Positions 21,316 through 34,792 of a stretch of 35,829 nt of DNA are shown piece by piece. A program made the position numbers and the translations under genes. The DNA lies in IMG/VR virus record IMGVR_UViG_3300046025_000024, positions 1-35,829 of that record. One strand, given 5' to 3'. Below the pieces are notes generated by a model. The model was not told where the DNA came from. It made no database searches and saw nothing but the letters and a program-made list of their open reading frames with translations. The DNA comes from a virus. Taxonomy: Duplodnaviria > Caudoviricetes. The first letter of the stretch is position 1. Every line of letters starts with the position of its first letter.

Positions 21316-21564
21316 ATGGGACTCTTCGACAGCGCGACTAGTGAACAGATCCACCGAGATCAGGTTCAGGTCGACGAGCGCGAGGGTGCGATCAATGTCG
21401 ACTACGGGCAGGACCAGTCCGTGAACTCGAAAGTACAGAACCAAGTTCAGAACACGCTGCTCGCCGAACTCATTTTCAGTAATCGCCGTCAGAACGCCCT
21501 CCTTGAGGAGCAGAACGAGCTACTCGAGCGACAGAACCAGCTTTTAGAGGAGCGCTCGGAGTAG
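21316..21564 (+). CDS. Small Q/N-rich coiled-coil protein (moron-like)
   Basis: Own promoter candidate; C-terminal QNALLEE-QNELLER-QNQLLEE heptads. Confidence 0.75.
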   Translation: MGLFDSATSEQIHRDQVQVDEREGAINVDYGQDQSVNSKVQNQVQNTLLAELIFSNRRQNALLEEQNELLERQNQLLEERSE

Positions 21565-21586
21565 CTCTCGCTGCTCAACGTCGGGT

Positions 21587-22195
21587 TCAAATCGTCATAA
21601 AGTGGTCGTACAGCCGCTCGGTCGTGAGGATGGAGGCGTGCCGCAGGCGGTTTCTGACGTCGTAGAGAGTGTTGGACTCTTCGGCGCGTAGCATCCGCCA
21701 GGCGACGCTGTGGCGCAGCGTGTGGGCGGAGACATCCTCCGGGTCTCCACGGCCTGAAAAGCAGTAGGGACGCACGCCCGCTCGTCGAGCCGCCCGCTGA
21801 ACGACATCATTAATCCCCTTCCCGGTCATTCGGTCTGACTTCTGGCTGCTTATCAGGGCCGCGGCGTCGTTCTGCCGCGCCTCGAGATACTCCTCGACCG
21901 TTGCGACCGTCTGAAGAGATCCATCTCTATCCAGTTGGAATGTCGCCGGCGGCGGCACCTGATCGTTCGGGTAGTCCTTTTGAATCGACGTCGGGACCCG
22001 CAACTGCTCTTCTTCGAGGTCGACCATGTCACGATCGACGAGCGCCGCCTCTCCACGTCGGAGCCCGGTGTCGTAGAGCACGGTCACGATCGCGGCGTCG
22101 CGCTCGGGATGACGGCCGTCGCGAACGACGTCTCGCATCGCCTCGACCTGAGCGGGTTTGAGCCAGTACTGATCGTCGGTGTCGGCCGCAGGCAT
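21587..22195 (-). CDS. Tyrosine recombinase, catalytic domain only (XerC/D-like)
   Basis: DTGLRRGE (R), IQKD (K), HTLRHS (HxxR), RLRH (H), LYDH (Y); only 202 aa. Confidence 0.92.
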   Translation of the reverse strand: MPAADTDDQYWLKPAQVEAMRDVVRDGRHPERDAAIVTVLYDTGLRRGEAALVDRDMVDLEEEQLRVPTSIQKDYPNDQVPPPATFQLDRDGSLQTVATVEEYLEARQNDAAALISSQKSDRMTGKGINDVVQRAARRAGVRPYCFSGRGDPEDVSAHTLRHSVAWRMLRAEESNTLYDVRNRLRHASILTTERLYDHFMTI

Positions 22196-22440
22196 TTGTA
22201 ACTAGGCTATCAGTGTCGACGGGCTAATAATGTTCGATTCCTCTGACAGACTCGAACATTTCTGCCCATTGCGCCGACGCAAACCATCTCCCTCTGGTGA
22301 TCTGCCTCGACGCAACCCGGTTTCTCCACGCGAACCCTTGGGGTTCGACGTCGAGGATACACCTGCAGAACCACCAAATAAACCTCATGTAGCTATATCG
22401 AGTTTCGAGAGCGGGGTAGGAGCAGTCGAGGGCTGACACT

Positions 22441-22489
22441 ACCTTACCAAACAATTTAATAGAGAAGCGGTTTAATTGTTTGGTAAGGT
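22441..22489. repeat. Inverted-repeat site 1
   Basis: ACCTTACCAAACAATT 22441-22456 / AATTGTTTGGTAAGGT 22474-22489, perfect 16 bp arms; contains TATA-like TTTAAT; ends just before ATG 22491. Confidence 0.9.
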
Positions 22490-22490
22490 T

Positions 22491-22829
22491 ATGACTTCAG
22501 ACCAGCAACCTGCTCCCCCCGGCGAGATTCCGAACTACATCGCTGACGGCCTCCAGCGCCAGGCCGTCCCAACCCTTCACGCGATCATCTCGTACTGCGA
22601 GGACCTCATCGAGTACCTCGAACAGCCACCCGACGAGGAGGACCTCGCGGCGGACGACGACGTCGTCGACGTCGAGGAGAGCGAGAACGGCGGGACGATC
22701 GTGAAGAAGATGCAAAAGTGCGGTACCGACTGCACCTGCAACGACGGGAAAGGCCACGGGCCGTACAAGTGGCGGGTCACGAGAGACGGAGACGGCGGTC
22801 AGGACTGGGACTATCTCGGGAAGGCGTAA
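22491..22829 (+). CDS. DUF6788-like zinc-binding, probable DNA-binding protein
   Basis: KCGTDCTCNDGKGHGPYKW...YLGK motif. Confidence 0.75.
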   Translation: MTSDQQPAPPGEIPNYIADGLQRQAVPTLHAIISYCEDLIEYLEQPPDEEDLAADDDVVDVEESENGGTIVKKMQKCGTDCTCNDGKGHGPYKWRVTRDGDGGQDWDYLGKA

Positions 22830-22830
22830 G

Positions 22831-22965
22831 ATGGGCCAGTACATCTGCGATCTCTGCAACGAGAGTGTCCCAGACGACGAGGTTTGGCCAGCGATGGTCG
22901 ACGGCGAGCGTGTCGTCGCGTGCGATGATTGCCGGCCAGAGGGCTCAGAGATTACGTTGAGTTGA
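22831..22965 (+). CDS. Zinc-finger microprotein (44 aa)
   Basis: MGQYICDLCNE...ACDDCRP, two CxxC; starts 1 nt after previous stop; absent from ORF track. Confidence 0.75.
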   Translation: MGQYICDLCNESVPDDEVWPAMVDGERVVACDDCRPEGSEITLS

Positions 22966-22972
22966 GGACCGG

Positions 22973-23132
22973 AAAAGCATAGCCGCCATCACGGCGGTCA
23001 CTGACAAGCTCTCCTCACAGCGTCGGCGTCCTTCGCCTCGAGCTGGGTGTCGCGGTGACGGCCGAGGCCGGCCGTCGAGATCCCCGGCCAGCCCGAGACG
23101 AAGGGGGCGGCCTCCGCGTGGGAGCTTATGCA
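22973..23132 (-). ncRNA. Putative structured small RNA
   Basis: TTTAAA at 23156-23161; 17 bp stem 23104-23088 / 23046-23030 whose two non-WC pairs are G-U on the minus strand; 3' hairpin then CTTTT. Confidence 0.6.
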
Positions 23133-23214
23133 TTCCTCTAAACGTGCCAACTGCATTTAAAGACCCGCCATGCTCGGTGAAAGTGAACGAAAACCTTCAG
23201 AGGAAACGGTGGGG

Positions 23215-23580
23215 TCAGCGACCTTCTTTCATCCAGTCGCGGACGATGAAGTTGATCGCCGCGTTCCGGCTGAGCTCCATCTCCTCCGCGAACTCGTCGA
23301 CGTCCTCGATGAGGTCGCGAGGTGAGCGTAGGGTCGTTTCCTTCCGGTCCTCGAATCCGCTTCGACCTGAGGGATCTAATTTCTCGTACCAGTCCTCGTA
23401 ACCGTCCGCGCCGCCGTGGATTTTGTTGTGGCAGGACCGACACACAGGTAGGAGGTTCTCGAGATCGTCGTTCGACTTATCTCCGTCGGCGTGGTGAACG
23501 ACGATCTCCTCGGTCGCGTCGCAGATGTGGCAGACTTCCTCCTTCCTGGAGAGGCATTTTTCGCGATACGCGGTAGTCAC
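23215..23580 (-). CDS. HNH endonuclease fused to a C-terminal ribbon-helix-helix domain
   Basis: CHIC...VHHADGDKSND..NLLPVCRSCH..IH, then TTLRSPRDLIEDVDEFAEEMELSRNAAINFIV. Confidence 0.85.
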   Translation of the reverse strand: MTTAYREKCLSRKEEVCHICDATEEIVVHHADGDKSNDDLENLLPVCRSCHNKIHGGADGYEDWYEKLDPSGRSGFEDRKETTLRSPRDLIEDVDEFAEEMELSRNAAINFIVRDWMKEGR

Positions 23581-23981
23581 TCTTGCGCGCCTTCACGTCC
23601 CAAGCGTTCAATGCTTTCTTTGAGTTCCTTGGGTTCCATTCCTTCTAAGCGTTCCAGGCCGAGAGAGACGACGAGCGGATAGTAGTACCGTGTTTTCTGT
23701 AACGAGCGTCCGTATTCTTCCTCAAATGCGAGGTCGAGGTGCTTGTAGCGCGTCGTGAGTTGCCGTTCCAAGAAGTCGGGGAGGTAGACGCTCGTGGCAG
23801 TCCATTCCTTCTTGACGTTCTCGGCGAGCATTGCATTCCCCCCATTCACATCTTTCCTTGAAGCCTTTTCGTTCTTTGCGTTCTTGGAAGTCTGTGAAGG
23901 CTGTGAGTTCTCGTCATTCGTGGAATCGTCGTCATCGAACCGACGTCGGAGCCGGTCGCGAACTTGGTCTTCGTCAGTCAT
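23577..23981 (-). CDS. ParA partner (putative RHH-type centromere-binding adaptor)
   Basis: Overlaps parA stop; disordered N-terminus then TSVYLPDFL strand-helix pattern. Confidence 0.65.
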   Translation of the reverse strand: MTDEDQVRDRLRRRFDDDDSTNDENSQPSQTSKNAKNEKASRKDVNGGNAMLAENVKKEWTATSVYLPDFLERQLTTRYKHLDLAFEEEYGRSLQKTRYYYPLVVSLGLERLEGMEPKELKESIERLGREGAQE

Positions 23982-24750
23982 GGTCGATCGCCTCCAGGTA
24001 GTCCGCGATCTCCTCGTACACTGCACGCATGTCCGTCTCCTCAGCATCGGCACCGAAGATAGAACCGCCAGACCCCAGAGACCGTTTGATCGCGGCGCGA
24101 TGGCGAATCTCGAAAATCGGGCAACGACCCTCGAACGTCTCGGTGAACCAGTCGATAGCCGAGCGCTGCTCGTTGTCGAGAGGGTAGTTTACGTTTGAGA
24201 TGAGGACCGCGCTTTCCTCGACGTCCATGTCGTAGTCGACCTCAAGAGAGTCGATCTGGTTCATGAGGTGCTCGATAGCGAGAATCGACGTTTCCGCCGC
24301 CTCGACGGGGATGAGAAGGTTACTGCAGGCGAGGAGGACGTTGTCGTTGATCGGGCCGAGCGAGGGCGGCGCGTCGACGATGAAGTAATCGTATCCGGTG
24401 AGCTCGTCGAGGAGCTGCCGGAACCGGAGGCGCGGACGTCGGCCGCTCGCGATGAGGTCCTGCTCCAGCCGGAACATATCGATGTTCGAGGGGACGACGT
24501 CGAACTCCTCGTGGTGGACGATGATATTGTCAAGATCCGTCTCGGCGGGATTTTTCATCGCCGAGTACAGCGTCGGGTCGTCCGCGAGATACGCGTCGCG
24601 GAGGTCGAGCGTGTTGGTGAGGTATCCCTGTGGGTCGAGATCGGCGACCGCGACGTGATGGCCACGGTCGGCGAGCGCACCGGCGAGATTGATCGTGTTC
24701 GTCGATTTGGCGACGCCACCTTTCTGATTTGCTATCGCGAACGTCTTCAT
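23974..24750 (-). CDS. parA: ParA/Soj family partition ATPase
   Basis: Deviant Walker A NQKGGVAKST, DLDPQG, IVDAPPSLG. Confidence 0.95.
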   Translation of the reverse strand: MKTFAIANQKGGVAKSTNTINLAGALADRGHHVAVADLDPQGYLTNTLDLRDAYLADDPTLYSAMKNPAETDLDNIIVHHEEFDVVPSNIDMFRLEQDLIASGRRPRLRFRQLLDELTGYDYFIVDAPPSLGPINDNVLLACSNLLIPVEAAETSILAIEHLMNQIDSLEVDYDMDVEESAVLISNVNYPLDNEQRSAIDWFTETFEGRCPIFEIRHRAAIKRSLGSGGSIFGADAEETDMRAVYEEIADYLEAIDHD

Positions 24751-24820
24751 GGAACGGTTGGAATTCCCTGCGTGCAAAGATAAAACTACGTCAGACGTTC
24801 GTCATAGACGACGCCCGACG

Positions 24821-24869
24821 ACCTTACCAACCGCTCGGGCTAGTCACCCCTTCAGATGTTTGGTAAGGT
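24821..24869. repeat. Inverted-repeat site 2
   Basis: ACCTTACCAA-N29-TTGGTAAGGT between repressor stop and parA promoter. Confidence 0.9.
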
Positions 24870-24902
24870 CACGGCGGCGGTCGCGACGGTCTCGGTCACG
24901 CG

Positions 24903-25181
24903 TCACTCTTCGTCGAGTTCCAGAAGATCGTCCGGTTCGAGTTGCTGTTCGACGTACTGTCGACCGAGATCAGTTACGCTGTAGTATGGATGTGTTCCGT
25001 CGTCGTCCTTTTCGAGGAGACCGCGGTCGACCAGACTTGAACAGCGGCTAGATACATGCCGTCGCGAAAGTCCCGTGTTTCTGGCGATGCTCCCGCTCCG
25101 GAGTTCGAGCGGCTTGGGAGGCCCGAGGAGCCGAAGAATTGCGTCGTCTGCCGGGACCATCCAGTCGACGCGACGGTACAT
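24903..25181 (-). CDS. phiH1 Rep-like winged-helix repressor
   Basis: RRVDWMVPADDAIL...VSSRCSSLVDRGLLE...YYSVTDLGRQY pattern. Confidence 0.85.
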   Translation of the reverse strand: MYRRVDWMVPADDAILRLLGPPKPLELRSGSIARNTGLSRRHVSSRCSSLVDRGLLEKDDDGTHPYYSVTDLGRQYVEQQLEPDDLLELDEE

Positions 25182-25205
25182 GGAGAAAAACCAGAATCGT
25201 AGCGG

Positions 25206-25282
25206 CTTAATTTGTGCCTATCGCGACGGTAATTCCTTCTTTCTAGAAGTGCAGTTCCTTCTTTTAGGAACAAGCTTAAGTT
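25206..25282. promoter_or_regulatory. Divergent promoters with tandem operator candidates
   Basis: AATTAAG (minus) about 26 nt before repressor ATG; CTTAAG 25275-25280 (plus); TTCCTTCTTT at 25233 and 25255 (22 bp apart), the second within GTTCCT-N6-AGGAAC. Confidence 0.65.
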
Positions 25283-25304
25283 AGCCCGCTGAATACTCGC
25301 CTCT

Positions 25305-25381
25305 GACGAAGGTTATCGTACGCTATGCTGCTCTCCGAAAAGGCAGCCGGTGTGCCAGCACCGACCGCGGTAGCCTTCGTC
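25305..25381 (+). ncRNA. Three-stem RNA at the 5' end of the rightward transcript
   Basis: 14 bp stem 25305-25318 / 25368-25381 enclosing hairpins 25327-25347 and CGGTG-TGCCAG-CACCG 25348-25363. Confidence 0.55.
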
Positions 25382-25430
25382 GTTAGCCTCGTGAAGGCGA
25401 GATCTCGGGCTTAATCTGGCCCGAGATCGA

Positions 25431-25730
25431 GTCTTCCCGAATCCCTCGGAAAGACATGTTCGCGTTCACCCGACACCCTAAAAGAAATGTCGTTTCTCCC
25501 GTCATTAGCTTGACTATTATCCCATGTCTACCGAGGGGTAACGACAGATTACGGGTACTGCTCAGCCTCAGTTTCACTTTCACGGTGCTGTTGGCGAGCA
25601 TTTATGTGTTCCGTAATCATAGAGGTTCGGTGAACGCACGAATCAAGGAACGCATCGGGGATCCGCTCCAGGCAAAATCCTGCTCCCACGCACATCTCGC
25701 CGCGGATCTCCTTCCACATCGGAGGCCTAG
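25431..25730 (+). ncRNA. Structured leader element copy A
   Basis: GCGTTCACC 25462-25470 / GGTGAACGC 25629-25637; shares GAACGCRCGAATCAAGG, CCTGCTCCCACGCA and GGAGGCCTAG with copy B. Confidence 0.6.
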
Positions 25731-25836
25731 GAATGAACACTCCCTTTAGGTGCTACCACCTAACACCAGCTCCCATCGCTCGGCGTCTGTTCGGCAACAG
25801 ACATTTGTCAGACGCACGTGGGGTGACTAGCTGGAG

Positions 25837-25845
25837 TTTTAAGTA
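25837..25845 (+). promoter_or_regulatory. TATA-like box upstream of leader copy C
   Basis: TTTTAAGTA. Confidence 0.5.
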
Positions 25846-25897
25846 CCGGGGGAGCAAATCTCGTAATCAACAAGATAGGAGCGCAGATCACACCCGC

Positions 25898-26028
25898 GGC
25901 TGGGCGGAAGTAGGAACCGAGGAAGGTGGAACTACCTTGGTTTTCTACGGCCGTCATCATAAGCCTACCGGACAGCATGAGCTACAGCACTGTCCTGGGC
26001 GGGTCACGAGCTGCTCCCACGACCAGCC
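25898..26028 (+). ncRNA. Structured leader element copy C
   Basis: GGCTGG/CCAGCC closing stem, two inner stems, TACCGGAC shared with copy B, CTGCTCCCACG 26011-26021, ATG at 26033. Confidence 0.55.
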
Positions 26029-26032
26029 AATC

Positions 26033-26428
26033 ATGCACACCCCAAGCACGATCACCACGGACGTATCGAAATTCGAGGAGTACCGTCGCTCCAGCGCCGT
26101 GGTACCACGACGAACGGCCGTAGAAACGGTATCGCTTTCAACGCGGAACCAGCATGGTACCACGCTCGGCGCTGTTGAAGAAGAAAGCGGTAAAACGAGT
26201 AGCCCCCTTGAACCGACCACGGTCGGCAGAGACGAAACCGCCGGACGTAGTGGTAGGACCACCCTCCCAGACGACCTGCCAGTTCGCGTAGGTGCTTTCA
26301 ACACTACTACTTACTGGAACCAAAACGATACCACAACCACCACACAGATGATAAGACGGCCCAGCCCTGGTACCACATGGCTGGTACCACGCGCCGTCGA
26401 CGCTGAAACCGGAGGTGGTGCGGCTTGA
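26033..26428 (+). CDS. Thr-rich leader ORF overlapping the iteron region (frame also open from 25733)
   Basis: Ends in GGAGGTG SD and TTGA overlap with next gene; low-complexity sequence. Confidence 0.45.
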   Translation: MHTPSTITTDVSKFEEYRRSSAVVPRRTAVETVSLSTRNQHGTTLGAVEEESGKTSSPLEPTTVGRDETAGRSGRTTLPDDLPVRVGAFNTTTYWNQNDTTTTTQMIRRPSPGTTWLVPRAVDAETGGGAA

Positions 26429-26953
26429 CCGAGCGCGTCCAGCTGGGCTGGCGTGTTCCTGCCGACGTCTGGGACCGGTTCGAGGACTTCGTCTACGAGA
26501 AACACGGCGCTACGGGCCCGTACCTCCGGTTCGAGCTCGAGTGCGCGATGCGTGAGTACCTCGATGATGACGGCGTCCTGGCGGAGGCAGAGAAGCTCCT
26601 CAAGGAGTCCACGGACCTTCGTGGGCTTTCTTCTTCAAAGCCAGTAGTTGGTACCGACCGGTACCACGGTGCTGATACGAGGAAGCTCTCCCACCGAATC
26701 AACGCTGAACTCAAAGAGCGGTTCCAGATCTTCGCCGACAAGCACGACGCGAGTTCCTACGGCCGCCTGCTGGCGGCTACACTGGATGCTTACACTGATG
26801 GCGGGCGAGCGCGCCGGATCCTCGAGGACGTCGAACGGCTCGTCACAGGCGGTACCAGTGGTGGTACCACAGGCGAGTCTGTTGAAAACGACGGAGATTC
26901 GGATGAGACGGGGCTTTCAACGGCCGAGGAGAGTGGTACCAGTGACGGTACCA
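26100..26953. repeat. Iteron-like GGTACC repeat cluster, candidate replication origin
   Basis: GGTACC at 26101, 26156, 26369, 26383, 26650, 26660, 26851, 26863, 26935, 26947, several with TTCAAC/GTTGAA at fixed 11-12 nt spacing. Confidence 0.7.
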
Positions 26954-27585
26954 CCGCCGAGATCCGGGTAGAACCGAGCGAGGTCGTGGAGATCGCGGAC
27001 ACTATCGTCGAGGACCCCACCAACACGATGATCCCGAAGCAGCTCCTCGACGAGAAGATCGTCTCCATCGCAGGTGTATCAACTGCAGATGCGATCGACG
27101 CCTATCGCGAGGCCGTCCTGAACCACCTGAACGCCGACGATCATCCGCACAACGACCGCGTCTACACTACCGAGGCGTACCGCGAGGAACACACACTCTG
27201 GGCCGACCTCAATCGCGACGAGCGTCTCGTCCTCCTACGGCGCTACGCTGCGGCCGACGCCGTCGAGCACCGCGACCGCACCCGCTGCTTCGATTACAAG
27301 GACGTCCAGGACCTCTTCGAGCACAATGCCGGCGGTGGGGGACCGTCTCACGAGTACGCGTACCAGTTGATGGAGGACGCGGCCGACGAACCCGGATTCA
27401 AATACGACAAATTCCACGGCCAGTTGCAGCTCCGAGTAGACCTCAGCGATGTCAACTGGTCGATCAAGAAATACGCATTTGAACAGAACCCGGATGCCGC
27501 GACCGAGGAGATCCGGCGCAACTTGGACATCACGACCTACACGGCCGGTTCGCCGCCGCAACAGGAAGGGATGGCCGATGACTAA
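26425..27585 (+). CDS. Putative replication initiator / DNA-binding protein with two RHH-like repeats
   Basis: VQLGWRVPADVWDRF and RKLSHRINAELKERF; iterons inside the gene; TTG start with SD; the initiator role is inferred. Confidence 0.55.
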   Translation: MTERVQLGWRVPADVWDRFEDFVYEKHGATGPYLRFELECAMREYLDDDGVLAEAEKLLKESTDLRGLSSSKPVVGTDRYHGADTRKLSHRINAELKERFQIFADKHDASSYGRLLAATLDAYTDGGRARRILEDVERLVTGGTSGGTTGESVENDGDSDETGLSTAEESGTSDGTTAEIRVEPSEVVEIADTIVEDPTNTMIPKQLLDEKIVSIAGVSTADAIDAYREAVLNHLNADDHPHNDRVYTTEAYREEHTLWADLNRDERLVLLRRYAAADAVEHRDRTRCFDYKDVQDLFEHNAGGGGPSHEYAYQLMEDAADEPGFKYDKFHGQLQLRVDLSDVNWSIKKYAFEQNPDAATEEIRRNLDITTYTAGSPPQQEGMADD

Positions 27586-27736
27586 GATCCCGTGCTCGGA
27601 GGAGGAGATCGAGGCGGCCGTCCTCGAACTGGACGAGAAACTGGCAGTCGAATCCGATGAGATCGAGGAAACGTACGCGGCGAACTTCCAAAGCGTGACG
27701 GCAGACGACGACAGCGTGTTCGTCTATCAGGGGTGA
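27578..27736 (+). CDS. Small acidic hypothetical protein (52 aa)
   Basis: MTKIPCSEEE..., overlaps upstream stop. Confidence 0.7.
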   Translation: MTKIPCSEEEIEAAVLELDEKLAVESDEIEETYAANFQSVTADDDSVFVYQG

Positions 27737-27769
27737 GACGCCGTGCGAGCCGGCGAGTGCTTTCCGCTG

Positions 27770-27819
27770 ACCTTACCAAACACTCGGCCTCTTCCTCTCC
27801 GCCAGATGTTTGGTAAGGT
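27770..27819. repeat. Inverted-repeat site 3
   Basis: ACCTTACCAAACA...TGTTTGGTAAGGT; right flank CAGATGTTTGGTAAGGTC identical to site 2. Confidence 0.9.
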
Positions 27820-27826
27820 CTGGGCG

Positions 27827-28057
27827 CTACTCGCGGAACCAGACGACGCCGCCCAGCTCGTCGAACTTTTTGCTCGCGATAGCGCCCTCGTCCTCGAGGT
27901 CGCGGAGTAGTTCGTACGCGCGCGAACGCGAGATGTCGAGACGCGAGGCGACCTCCCGCGTACTACGCGGCTCGTGGCTGGAGAAGAGGTCGTCGACGAC
28001 GTCGTCCGGGTCGACCGTCGGCTCGAACCGACCGGTGTCTTCGTTCCGTTTCGGCAT
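27827..28057 (-). CDS. Small winged-helix regulator
   Basis: STREVASRLDISRSRAYELLRDLEDEG HTH, KK..GGVVW wing. Confidence 0.85.
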   Translation of the reverse strand: MPKRNEDTGRFEPTVDPDDVVDDLFSSHEPRSTREVASRLDISRSRAYELLRDLEDEGAIASKKFDELGGVVWFRE

Positions 28058-28117
28058 TGCCGTATCAGGCGGGATGGACGGACTTCAACCCATCGACGAT
28101 TGGCGTCGAGGGTAAAA

Positions 28118-28144
28118 TACTTAATACTGGCCTTTGTTCAACAA
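28118..28144 (+). promoter_or_regulatory. Early promoter with palindromic operator candidate
   Basis: TACTTAATA box followed by TTGTT-C-AACAA at 28134-28144. Confidence 0.55.
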
Positions 28145-28164
28145 GTTAGAGCAGGCGACCAACA

Positions 28165-28300
28165 CTGGATCTCTCTCGCGACGCGCGGACTCCCGGCTCC
28201 CACCTCGTAAAACATCGGGAGAACGCGCGAATCAAGGGTACCGGACCTCGCGAGAGGTCCAGTGCTCCAGGGCAACCTGCTCCCACGCAAGGAGGCCTAG
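28165..28300 (+). ncRNA. Structured leader element copy B
   Basis: Closing stem CTGGATCTCT/GGAGGCCTAG, inner stems with GCGA and GCAA tetraloops, CCTGCTCCCACGCA 28276-28289, ATG at 28304. Confidence 0.65.
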
Positions 28301-28303
28301 AGC

Positions 28304-28774
28304 ATGCGAAAACACAACCGCAACATAGTAAAGTTTAACGAACAGGACACACCGACGTTTTTCGGCACCGGTGAGGCCGGAAACGCCGAAATCCGGTGTG
28401 GCGACTGCGGCGGCCGCGTCGTCGCCGACGGCGGCGTCAACTTCTACCGCGACCTGACGGCGTTCCAGCAGCAGATTCTCGTCGTCCTCCGTCGGATCGA
28501 GCGCGGGAAGACCGGCGAAGGCACCGCGTACGGGCTCGCCATCAAGCGCGAGCTCGAAGCGCTCCGCGGCGAGGAGGTCAACCACGGCCGGCTGTACCCC
28601 AACCTCGACCAGCTGGTCGAGCAAGACCTCGTCGAGAAGGCGATCCTCGACCGGCGCACGAACGAGTACTCGACCACCGAGGTCACTCGAAAGCTCATCG
28701 ACGAGCACGCGCGCTGGGTCACCGACTCGGTCGGCGAACGGCTCGCGGTCACCGACGGAGGTGAAGACGCTTGA
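28304..28774 (+). CDS. PadR-family winged-helix regulator
   Basis: DLTAFQ...YGLAIKREL...EVNHGRLYPNLD...DRRTNEY. Confidence 0.88.
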   Translation: MRKHNRNIVKFNEQDTPTFFGTGEAGNAEIRCGDCGGRVVADGGVNFYRDLTAFQQQILVVLRRIERGKTGEGTAYGLAIKRELEALRGEEVNHGRLYPNLDQLVEQDLVEKAILDRRTNEYSTTEVTRKLIDEHARWVTDSVGERLAVTDGGEDA

Positions 28775-28896
28775 GCTCCGCGTCCTCCGGGACGGTCTGC
28801 GACACCTGCGGCGAGGAGAGCGAGAAGTGCTACCGCTGCACGAACGACGACTGCGCGCGCGGCGACCTCGTCGAGAAGGGAGGCCACGAACGATGA
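28771..28896 (+). CDS. Zinc-finger microprotein (41 aa)
   Basis: TTG start overlapping the PadR stop, GGAGGTG SD; CDTCG...CYRCTNDDC. Confidence 0.65.
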   Translation: MSSASSGTVCDTCGEESEKCYRCTNDDCARGDLVEKGGHER

Positions 28897-29300
28897 TGCC
28901 CGAGGACGCAGACACCCTCGCGGCGATCGTCTCGGCCGTCGACGGCGCTGGCGGACGGATCCGCGGCACCGAGATCGACCACAAGGCGAAGGGCGGGCTC
29001 GGGAACGCGATCGCGATGAGTCTGGGCGGTCAGCCCACGAAGATTCCCGTGTTCACGCTGGAGATCGTCGCCGACCCCGCGGTCGTCCTCGACGGGGAGC
29101 CCGAGGAGACCGCGGCCGACATGGACGGTGACGAGAAGCCCCCGCTCGCGCGTGCCCGCACCCGCATCGAGAACCTCGAAGGTGAAGGCATCGACGAGTT
29201 TACGAAACGGCAGGCGCTTCAGGTCATCGAAGACGTCAGCGTCGAGCAAGTCGAGATCACGTTCGAGGAAGCGCCCGCGGAGGGAGGCGAGCAGCGATGA
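28893..29300 (+). CDS. Hypothetical protein
   Basis: MMPEDADTL..., GGAGG SD, ATGA overlap. Confidence 0.8.
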   Translation: MMPEDADTLAAIVSAVDGAGGRIRGTEIDHKAKGGLGNAIAMSLGGQPTKIPVFTLEIVADPAVVLDGEPEETAADMDGDEKPPLARARTRIENLEGEGIDEFTKRQALQVIEDVSVEQVEITFEEAPAEGGEQR

Positions 29301-29824
29301 CGCACGCCGACATCCGCGTCGGGGACGCCGTCTACGACCTCGCGGGCGGCGGCGCGAAGATGGTCGTCGTCGAGCGTGTCGCGGACTCCGTCGAGGAGCA
29401 CCGCGAGCGCGAGGACTTCGACCTCGCGACGTACAAGAGCCACCCGAACCTGCCGGTCCGAGAGGACGACCCGGTCTTCAAGTGCGTGTTCATCCCCGAC
29501 AGCCCCGGCTCCGAACCCGGCGGCGGGACCTACGACTTCCCCGCCGGTCGGCTAGCGCGCGCCCCGATCGAGGCGGCGAACGCCGAGGTCGAGCGCGTCC
29601 AAGACGTCATCGTTCGCGACGTCCTCGAGGAGCTGCTCGTGATGGCGAGCGCCATCGACTCGACCGGGACCGTCGACGACAGCCACGTCGACGTCGTCCT
29701 GGACATCGCCGGCGAGGCTTTCGACGAGCGCCTCGTCCGCGACGCCGAGGAGCTCGCGGAGACCCGGCCGGACTGGCAGAGCCGGCGCTCGGAGATCGCC
29801 GCTGACGGTGGCACGCCCGAGTGA
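29297..29824 (+). CDS. Hypothetical viral protein
   Basis: 175 aa acidic, coupled at both ends. Confidence 0.85.
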   Translation: MTHADIRVGDAVYDLAGGGAKMVVVERVADSVEEHREREDFDLATYKSHPNLPVREDDPVFKCVFIPDSPGSEPGGGTYDFPAGRLARAPIEAANAEVERVQDVIVRDVLEELLVMASAIDSTGTVDDSHVDVVLDIAGEAFDERLVRDAEELAETRPDWQSRRSEIAADGGTPE

Positions 29825-34089: not shown

Positions 34090-34792
34090 CGACCGGCTGG
34101 ACGAGCTCGCGGAGCGGGACGACCTGCTCCTGTTGAGCGACAGCAACGACCGGACCGCCTATCTCGGCGGCGGCCCCGACCACTTCGTTAGCGAAGTCCA
34201 CGACGACTCGCCGGGACCCCAGCAGAAGACCATCGAACGCGCGGCCGCGAAGCGGATGGTCCGTGGCTGGAACGTCGTCGGCTTCGAGGACGTCCCTCGA
34301 GCCGACGAGTTCGAGCCGCCCGCGTGGGTCGGCGAGTACGAGACGGAGACGTACCGCGGGTTGATGCTCTACCCGGCGCCCGGGGACTGGGAGCTCTCGA
34401 TCGTCGAGGGAGACTGCATCAGATGGAAGCGCCCGGAGATGCCCGGGCCCGAGGACCAGTACTGGGAGTCGCACGACTCCTGGAGCCCGGACAACGAAGC
34501 CGGGACGATCAACGAGTTCGAGCTCGGCGGCGGCTTCAACCCCGACGAGACGGTCACCACCCGGTTCTCCGTCGACGGCGAGACCATCTTTTCGCTGACG
34601 GACCCCTCGCACGATGAACTGATGGCGCCCATCGCTGAGATCCTCGCCCGTGTCGCCGGCGACGAGGACCTCGAGGAGATCGTCGACGACGTCGAGCTCC
34701 CGAGCGACGCCGAGGAGCCGAAGACAGCCGAGGAGATCGCGGAGGAGAACGGCAGCACGCTCGGCGACTTCGCCGGTGGTCGCGATGACTGA
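34079..34792 (+). CDS. Hypothetical protein
   Basis: MSSDDRLDEL..., GGAGGTG SD, ends TLGDF. Confidence 0.8.
   Translation: MSSDDRLDELAERDDLLLLSDSNDRTAYLGGGPDHFVSEVHDDSPGPQQKTIERAAAKRMVRGWNVVGFEDVPRADEFEPPAWVGEYETETYRGLMLYPAPGDWELSIVEGDCIRWKRPEMPGPEDQYWESHDSWSPDNEAGTINEFELGGGFNPDETVTTRFSVDGETIFSLTDPSHDELMAPIAEILARVAGDEDLEEIVDDVELPSDAEEPKTAEEIAEENGSTLGDFAGGRDD

Follow-up and report, generated by a model that had tools for sequence, protein, structure and literature searches.

Phages P1 and P7 have an immunity RNA, C4, whose pairing involves multiple short sites in lytic leaders, and repeated short RNA elements in early leaders are also known from HK022 put, lambda nut, and CsrB-type decoys. 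According to the accessible parts of the published accounts, Tant of virus phiH1, the first antisense RNA described in Archaea, pairs with transcript T1, after which a host RNase removes the ribosome-binding site (PMC4284463, PMC8707807). The GenBank record of phiH1 (MK002701.1) places a common start of T1, T2, and T3 at 38582, 151 nt ahead of padR, and the minus-strand start of Tant at 38732, the base before the padR ATG (38733). Work on phiH ended in 1994, and the accessible part of the 2018 genome paper describes the topic as not fully explored; likewise, the accessible accounts of T1 and Tant contain no mention of a leader fold or a repeated core (PMC4284463, PMC8707807, PMC6210493). Here, we analyzed positions 1 to 35,829 of the IMG/VR record IMGVR_UViG_3300046025_000024 (hereafter, the window), a 35.8-kb fragment of a haloarchaeal myovirus, in which a short core recurs in stretches named A, C, and B on the plus strand and D on the minus strand, while a further copy, E, is located beyond the end of this contig in related genomes.

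Based on its sequence, we propose, at what we consider an even chance, that the core in B, A, C, and D would be a docking site for the 5' end of Tant, and that Tant would silence several lytic messages. The orthology of the loci, the conserved folds, and the complementarity itself were observed. Comparisons were made among four viruses, namely this virus, phiH1, phiCh1, and genome G001, and the structure comparisons thus rest on at most four related sequences. The following RNA features are used throughout.

28148 to 28303, plus strand: copy B, 5' leader RNA of the early PadR operon (156 nt), very probable orthologue of the 151-nt phiH1 T1/T2/T3 leader
28148 to 28303, minus strand: predicted antisense RNA Tant, its 5' end placed near 28303 from the phiH1 homologue
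28121 to 28127, plus strand: TATA-like box of the B (T1-type) transcript, from the alignment and the phiH1 start site
28329 to 28342, minus strand: candidate Tant promoter within the 5' coding region of padR, TTTA at -29 to -26
25305 to 25380, plus strand: 5' three-way-junction domain of the T4-type leader, its start agreeing with the phiH1 T4 start; TATA-like box at 25276-25282
25386 to 25732, plus strand: copy A, rest of the T4/T5 leader, from predicted fold and alignment
25892 to 26032, plus strand: copy C, structured segment of the ORF49-like frame, corresponding to the site of T4 to T4' cleavage in phiH1
22973 to 23134, minus strand: copy D, predicted small RNA whose 5' end carries the core (23125-23109); TATA-like box at 23156-23161

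Repeated core and complementarity to Tant

Copy B is placed between imm and padR in the Myohalovirus L segment, as is the phiH1 T1 leader, and is very probably its orthologue, judging from position and alignment. B-type leaders of the four viruses measure 156 (this virus), 151, 152, and 149 nt, their four-way alignment revealed a mean column identity of 85%, and B is homologous to phiH1 from the start site to the AUG. A preliminary description of positions 25431 to 28303, made from the letters of the window and a list of its open reading frames, had taken A, B, and C for copies of one undescribed leader RNA and had not recognized this setting, in which Tant has been known since 1993. Its basic observations were confirmed: the 11-mer CTGCTCCCACG is present exactly at 25680, 26011, and 28277 on the plus strand with no other exact copy in the window (about 0.001 copies expected by chance in 2.9 kb), the blocks common to A and B and the block TACCGGAC...GTCC common to B and C are found as described, and ATG codons follow at 25733, 26033, and 28304. 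The RNA at 22973-23132 had rightly been grouped with these copies, as it carries the same core.

The part common to the copies corresponds to the last 25-30 nt of B, i.e., the complement of the Tant 5' end, the shared core being complementary to Tant nt 1-30. For each of the four viruses, five 30-nt pieces of Tant were scanned against both strands of the virus's own genome. Only nt 1-30 found further partners above background, with scores of 60-67 for A, 56-60 for E, and 42-53 for D, while the other four pieces reached at most 49. With the best of 40 shuffled queries per genome at 51-57, A topped the shuffled maximum of its own genome in 4/4 viruses and E in 3/3. When co-folded with Tant, A was predicted to form 28-38 intermolecular pairs and E to form 28-29; A is predicted to bind the Tant of its own virus best in three of the four viruses, and the cognate pairing of A and B ties for best among 24 permutations. 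Within a virus, A and B change together, displaying GCTCCAGG and CCTAG here and CCCGCTTG and AGAGG in phiCh1, and these virus-specific states occur on both sides of the private insertion of A. In the 11 secondary copies, all core differences from the virus's own B (4/4) are A to G, which keep a G-U pair with Tant and would be mismatches if the plus strand of D were the antisense RNA.

With regard to Tant itself, a T-run near -30 to -26 is present in 5/5 sequences and coincides with a lysine codon. A sigma-70 promoter scan, which is ill-suited to archaea, found no promoter. The Tant 5' end is predicted to be weakly paired in this virus and more paired in phiH1 and G001. In one DNA run, the 3' end of B was covered with one variant contig, and the core of A, C, and D were uncovered.

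Folds of the leader RNAs

Copy B begins at 28148 and not, as first described, at 28165. Its closing helix joins 5' GAGCAGG (28149-28155) with CCUGCUC (28276-28282), shows one compensatory change plus a 2-bp extension in phiCh1, and has a probability of 0.27 in this virus versus 0.97-1.0 in the other three. The interior comprises long inner helices with a second, invariant CUCCCAC in an apical loop (28197-28203), and the last 21 nt, which contain the ribosome-binding site GGAGG (28291-28295), are unpaired outside the fold. Changes on both sides were detected in 6/37 pairs, compared to 1.8 in shuffles (1/500 as high), which with four related sequences is support and not proof for the fold. The GNRA hairpins ascribed to B belong to a minor fold, the long-range helix being favoured in 4/4 viruses. 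An alternative helix sequestering the AUG was rejected, as it appears only in the ensemble of this virus (0.47) and not in the other three.

The T4-type leader, of which A is the 3' part, has a total length of 428 nt and starts at 25305 rather than at the 25431 originally given for A. Its three-way junction had been overlooked (z -6.6 for 25306-25460); the 5' part shows compensatory changes in the four viruses (7/43 pairs) and no Rfam match. The closing strand of A, too, is located upstream of the claimed start: GCCUC (25386) is paired to the GAGGC (25722-25726) within the ribosome-binding site, a closure that is invariant in 4/4 viruses, and this pairing has a probability of 0.2-0.94 across 4/4 long leaders. 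A long stem (25462-25470 with 25629-25637) and the AAUCAAGG linker are followed by a third stem (25657-25666 with 25702-25711) enclosing an exposed loop, UCCCAC, which is predicted to be unpaired in 4/4 viruses (0.83-1.0). The predicted Tant target of A has two parts, 25663-25692 and 25721-25731. Covariation amounted to 13/86 pairs in three sequences, with 0/13 in the third stem on an imperfect alignment. phiH1 harbors a private additional core elsewhere in its T4 leader. According to its record, T4 and T5 start ahead of PhiH1_275/280 and repH (MK002701.1), and a review describes ORF49 and T4 as being under control of the Rep repressor (PMC4284463). A switch whereby the long T4 hides the ribosome-binding site of A and the short T5 exposes it was not supported, since the site is paired in both forms in three viruses; phiCh1 is the exception, with a largely open site in both.

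Folding beats dinucleotide shuffles in all three stretches (z -4.8 for A, -3.0 for C, and -5.4 for B; 100 shuffles each), but the single topology drawn for them does not hold. In B, the core is split, with CCUGCUC paired to the transcript 5' end and the remainder forming the free 3' tail; in A, it is a hairpin loop within the third stem; and in C, it is a separate local hairpin. Compensatory changes across the four viruses back the folds of both A and B, whose topologies differ, and a covariance model (R1) built from B matches neither A nor C, with filters on or off. Thus, A and B are paralogous leaders with partly common blocks, and C has only a short site in common with them. Covariation was seen within A and within B, and the model does not unite the copies into one class; the preliminary description was right in taking them for structured and conserved RNAs that regulate the early and replication operons. 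The earlier finding that no known family is present agrees with Rfam, which gave no match in the window or in related loci, including the models of the C4 and CI immunity RNAs. As models, the predicted folds of these T1-type and T4-type leaders are new and have no entry in Rfam.

Copies C, D, and E and single cores elsewhere

Copy C is located within a reading frame:

25733 to 26428, plus strand: ORF49-like frame, continuing in frame through the ATG at 26033

The first approximately 100 codons of this frame resemble phiCh1 ORF49 (30% identity) and PhiH1_280 (27%), and the ATG behind C, previously taken as the start of a gene with its own leader, is codon 101. Its 11-nt core (26011-26021) is found in this virus only, and the corresponding regions of the other three viruses form well-paired hairpins without the core. 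C is, as modelled, a weak and virus-specific Tant target. In phiH1, the cleavage product T4' lies inside PhiH1_280 (MK002701.1), with the cut in a predicted hairpin loop. Four successive hairpins, whose sequences differ with pairing kept, were noticed in the ORF49 frame (L001 7425-7585, L002 6672-6834, and L005 5365-5525, minus strand); they precede the next gene, and the phiH1 T4' cut is in the first loop. Conservation of ORF49 may be partly at the RNA level.

Copy D is located directly behind the DUF6788 gene in 4/4 viruses, and its 3' end consists of a hairpin plus a U-run at 22997-22973. Its core is predicted to be paired in this virus, and D is regarded as a candidate Tant target or decoy. 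The sequence TTCACTTTCAC (23177-23187) was identified upstream of the TATA-like box of D in 4/4 viruses and again, in this virus, in the insertion of A (25575-25585); it is possibly a transcription-factor site.

Copy E is found ahead of PhiH1_445 in phiH1, phiCh1, G001, L064, and L065. In 5/5 of these Myohalovirus copies, CCCAGA, the complement of the first bases of Tant, is kept after a looped-out spacer of 7-8 nt, and phiCh1 and G001 lack an AUG behind it. The distance from the TATA-like box to the core is 36-38 nt in D and E, while the cores of A, B, and C are not promoter-proximal. This spacing together with the U-run of D indicates that the core is read in the same sense in all copies. 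The second domain of E was also detected, without the core, on a plasmid of Natrinema thermotolerans, in a region lacking annotation (87% over 53 nt; L050 1545-1610 and L075 19232-19284) and represents a separate mobile RNA motif.

Besides chance matches (L023, L028, L067, and L069, all dropped), the viral scans revealed only phiCh1, ChaoS9, G001, L064, L065, L070, and L009, the last being a DUF6788 fragment without the core. The homologue scan of genome contigs gave records that were all bacterial (8/8) and at about chance level, and of the 12 stretches from the metagenome scan none was in a related setting on inspection. L070 is an unrelated halovirus fragment with a single core copy; the gene behind it was considered as a PhiH1_445 homologue and rejected as not homologous. 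The lone core of ChaoS9 ends a foldable plus-strand stretch of about 170 nt behind a TATA-like box (L003 4285-4462; ChaoS9 approximately 34284-34461) and is followed only by a 9-codon frame, with the annotated orphan ChaoS9_250 overlapping on the other strand. It is a possible decoy or Tant mimic.

Proposed role of Tant and competing explanations

Under the favoured reading, this virus would make Tant from a promoter inside padR. The fold of B would leave its ribosome-binding tail free, and in lysogens Tant would enter there. Tant nt 1-40 would pair, over about 30-38 bp, with the exposed UCCCAC loop of A and its ribosome-binding site and so block the ORF49/replication operon, and in front of the PhiH1_445-terS operon Tant would enter E at a loop and toehold. 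In this way, both operons would come under an RNA lock in addition to the control of T4 by Rep. Of the remaining copies, D would be another target or act as a decoy, and C would be an additional weak site peculiar to this virus. A further-reaching possibility, which we consider improbable, is a lysis-lysogeny circuit of archaeal viruses made up entirely of RNA, in which Tant is also the trans repressor of the main lytic operons via a shared loop-plus-toehold site, D titrates Tant at induction, and the cores of ChaoS9 and L070 are decoys breaking the immunity of resident phiH-type proviruses.

Several points weigh against Tant as a multi-target RNA. Both A and B are carried by only the four genomes compared, and ChaoS9 (a complete genome) and L070 (an 11.8-kb fragment) have one core each, although no B leader was found in either; this would not be expected of a private Tant regulon. 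The scan reveals the repeated piece and not its binding partner, and a protein site or gene conversion would give a similar picture. The scores of D lie within the shuffled range; with full Tant, D in this virus gains a net -9.7 kcal/mol, its core being predicted paired, and C is weakly bound (-0.8 with Tant nt 1-45 and -6.2 with full Tant), all energies being computed at standard salt and not at molar KCl. A of G001 prefers the Tant of phiH1 over its own, and the four A-to-G differences amount to about three independent events of a common type, transitions. Furthermore, the Tant start in GenBank equals the T1 start plus 150 and may be derived from the duplex length instead of mapping, and the Tant promoter signal could be explained by codon constraint. 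In the literature, no experiment on A, C, D, or E was found; likewise, a search that left the primary phiH and phiCh1 papers and theses mostly uncovered yielded no paper dealing with the repeated core, with how the leaders fold, or with other targets of Tant.

The main rival, rather unlikely in our view, retains the protein-binding or nut-like function suggested in the preliminary description, which is thus kept but no longer preferred. Here, the core and its GGAGG partner would be the binding site of a viral or host protein, acting by nut/put- or TAR-like elongation control or by translational control, and D would be a protein decoy. Such a site would fit the location of the core in D and E, where it forms a CUCC-loop-GGAG hairpin about 8 nt downstream of the predicted start, and the presentation of UCCCAC by a loop of A and at two places in B; the single cores in ChaoS9 and L070, the start shared by T1, T2, and T3 in phiH1, and the DUF6788 gene adjoining D in 4/4 viruses also speak for it. 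What tells against it is that the long Tant complement is kept although the structural setting of the core is not the same in A, B, C, and E. Moreover, the virus-specific changes in A and B span about 35 nt, probably beyond the usual need of a protein site, and the separate CCCAGA piece of E ends near the Tant 5' end.

A and B could also stem from an old duplication, their likeness being preserved by gene conversion and by the folding of each leader, with both acting in cis only and Tant acting on B alone; CUCC would then be an anti-ribosome-binding strand and GCCUC would close A. This explanation, which we judge to be distinctly improbable, accounts for the pairing of the A ribosome-binding site with GCCUC in 4/4 long leaders and for the alternative folds of B in this virus, and the upstream block GAACGCRCGAATCAAGG does show a common origin of A and B. 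Yet that block follows orthology, not genome, so that homogenization is confined to the part facing the Tant 5' end. D and E, without a conserved start codon after GGAGG, are left unexplained, as is the CCCAGA of E.

Alternatively, the plus strand of D, the 3' end of the T8-type DUF6788 message, might be the antisense RNA against A, B, and E, similar to P1 C4 or P4 CI. It offers a 16-18 nt complement of the core with net binding of -7 to -23 kcal/mol, T8 is annotated as constitutive in phiH1 (MK002701.1), and the lack of the 2-nt spacer in this virus and in G001 would suit the split target of A. However, in phiCh1 it would have two A-C mismatches with A as well as with B, it is unable to pair with CCCAGA, and its binding to A is weaker than that of Tant in 4/4 viruses. 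The TATA-like box at E-like spacing in 4/4 viruses and the U-run in the window point to the minus strand, and we regard a plus-strand antisense RNA as very improbable.

Metabolite-sensing riboswitches or self-cleaving ribozymes, among the functions first proposed, have multi-stem folds with covariation and the phiH1 T4' cleavage in a hairpin loop at the position of C in their favour, but found no support otherwise and are hardly probable at all, given the lack of an Rfam match to riboswitch or small-ribozyme families in the window and related loci, the lack of a common tertiary core in A, B, and C, downstream genes that are regulatory and not metabolic, and the absence of an HDV-like strand order (checked by eye).

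Genomic setting

The window carries a Myohalovirus L segment, with 21500-29400 matching the L segment of phiH1 (53% covered, 73% identity) and also phiCh1. Head and tail genes occupy 1-21 kb, followed by int2, DUF6788, HNH, parA, two helix-turn-helix (HTH) genes, padR, and PCNA. The genes next to the copies are as follows.

28304 to 28774, plus strand: PadR-family gene downstream of copy B, orthologue of PhiH1_295 and phiCh1 ORF56
27827 to 28057, minus strand: imm-like HTH gene divergent from copy B, orthologue of PhiH1_290 and ORF55
24903 to 25181, minus strand: HTH gene divergent from the T4-type leader, at the position of repR (assigned by position)
22491 to 22829, plus strand: DUF6788 gene adjoining copy D, orthologue of PhiH1_250

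The imm protein family is small, as only 14 clusters were obtained among 15 candidates. The place of repH is occupied by an ORF of 386 aa at 26425 without a Pfam match; its assignment as RepH (26425-27585) was rejected, with 20-24% identity in a forced alignment. Many iteron-like GGTACCAC and GTACCAC repeats were detected in and around 26048-26960, upstream of and within this ORF. Three inverted repeats of CCTTACCAAAC around a spacer were identified at 22442-22488, 24822-24868, and 27771-27818 (6 matches versus 0.02 expected). They border blocks that are inverted in phiCh1 (par-D-DUF6788) and G001 (ORF49 region), and therefore may be Int2 recombination sites or par/operator sites. A tRNA-like fragment with a T-arm between head genes (2171-2228; weak mascRNA match, E 0.18) is possibly an attachment site remnant.

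Comparison with known systems

With the phiH1 T1 leader and Tant, the locus shares the imm-padR position, the start sequence, a leader of 149-156 nt, and the lysogeny region (MK002701.1, PMC4284463, PMC8707807, PMC6210493). In the accessible parts of these accounts, phiH1 Tant has one target, T1, while further targets, A, E, and D, are predicted here (PMC4284463, PMC8707807, PMC6210493). An immunity RNA with multiple short pairing sites in lytic leaders resembles the CI RNA of phage P4 with seqA and seqC (PMC4825925) and the C4 antisense RNA of P1 and P7 (PMC2864571). Neither an Rfam nor a sequence match connects them to this locus, and the complementarity of one small RNA to several lytic-leader sites was found here in silico. 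CI is described in the accessible text as processed from the transcript that it controls and as acting by transcription termination (PMC4825925). Unlike CI, Tant is a full counter-transcript of one leader and acts, in phiH1, through RNase cleavage; its annotation as a counter-transcript does not fit a CI-type processing from the controlled transcript, and its additional predicted sites are in other operons, kilobases apart.

Compared to put, nut, and CsrB-type systems, the promoter-proximal position of D and E and the possible decoy role of D are similar, while the core of A and B is far from the promoter and beside the start codon. Unlike for those systems, we know of no protein partner of the core. 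If a protein does bind the core instead of Tant, it would be a candidate for viral RNA-binding control in archaea. Exact and cheap tests are possible in two cultured viruses, phiH1 and phiCh1. If Tant has a regulon, it would be a single RNA acting in cis and in trans, and would give archaea an equivalent of the multi-site immunity RNAs known from P1 and P4.

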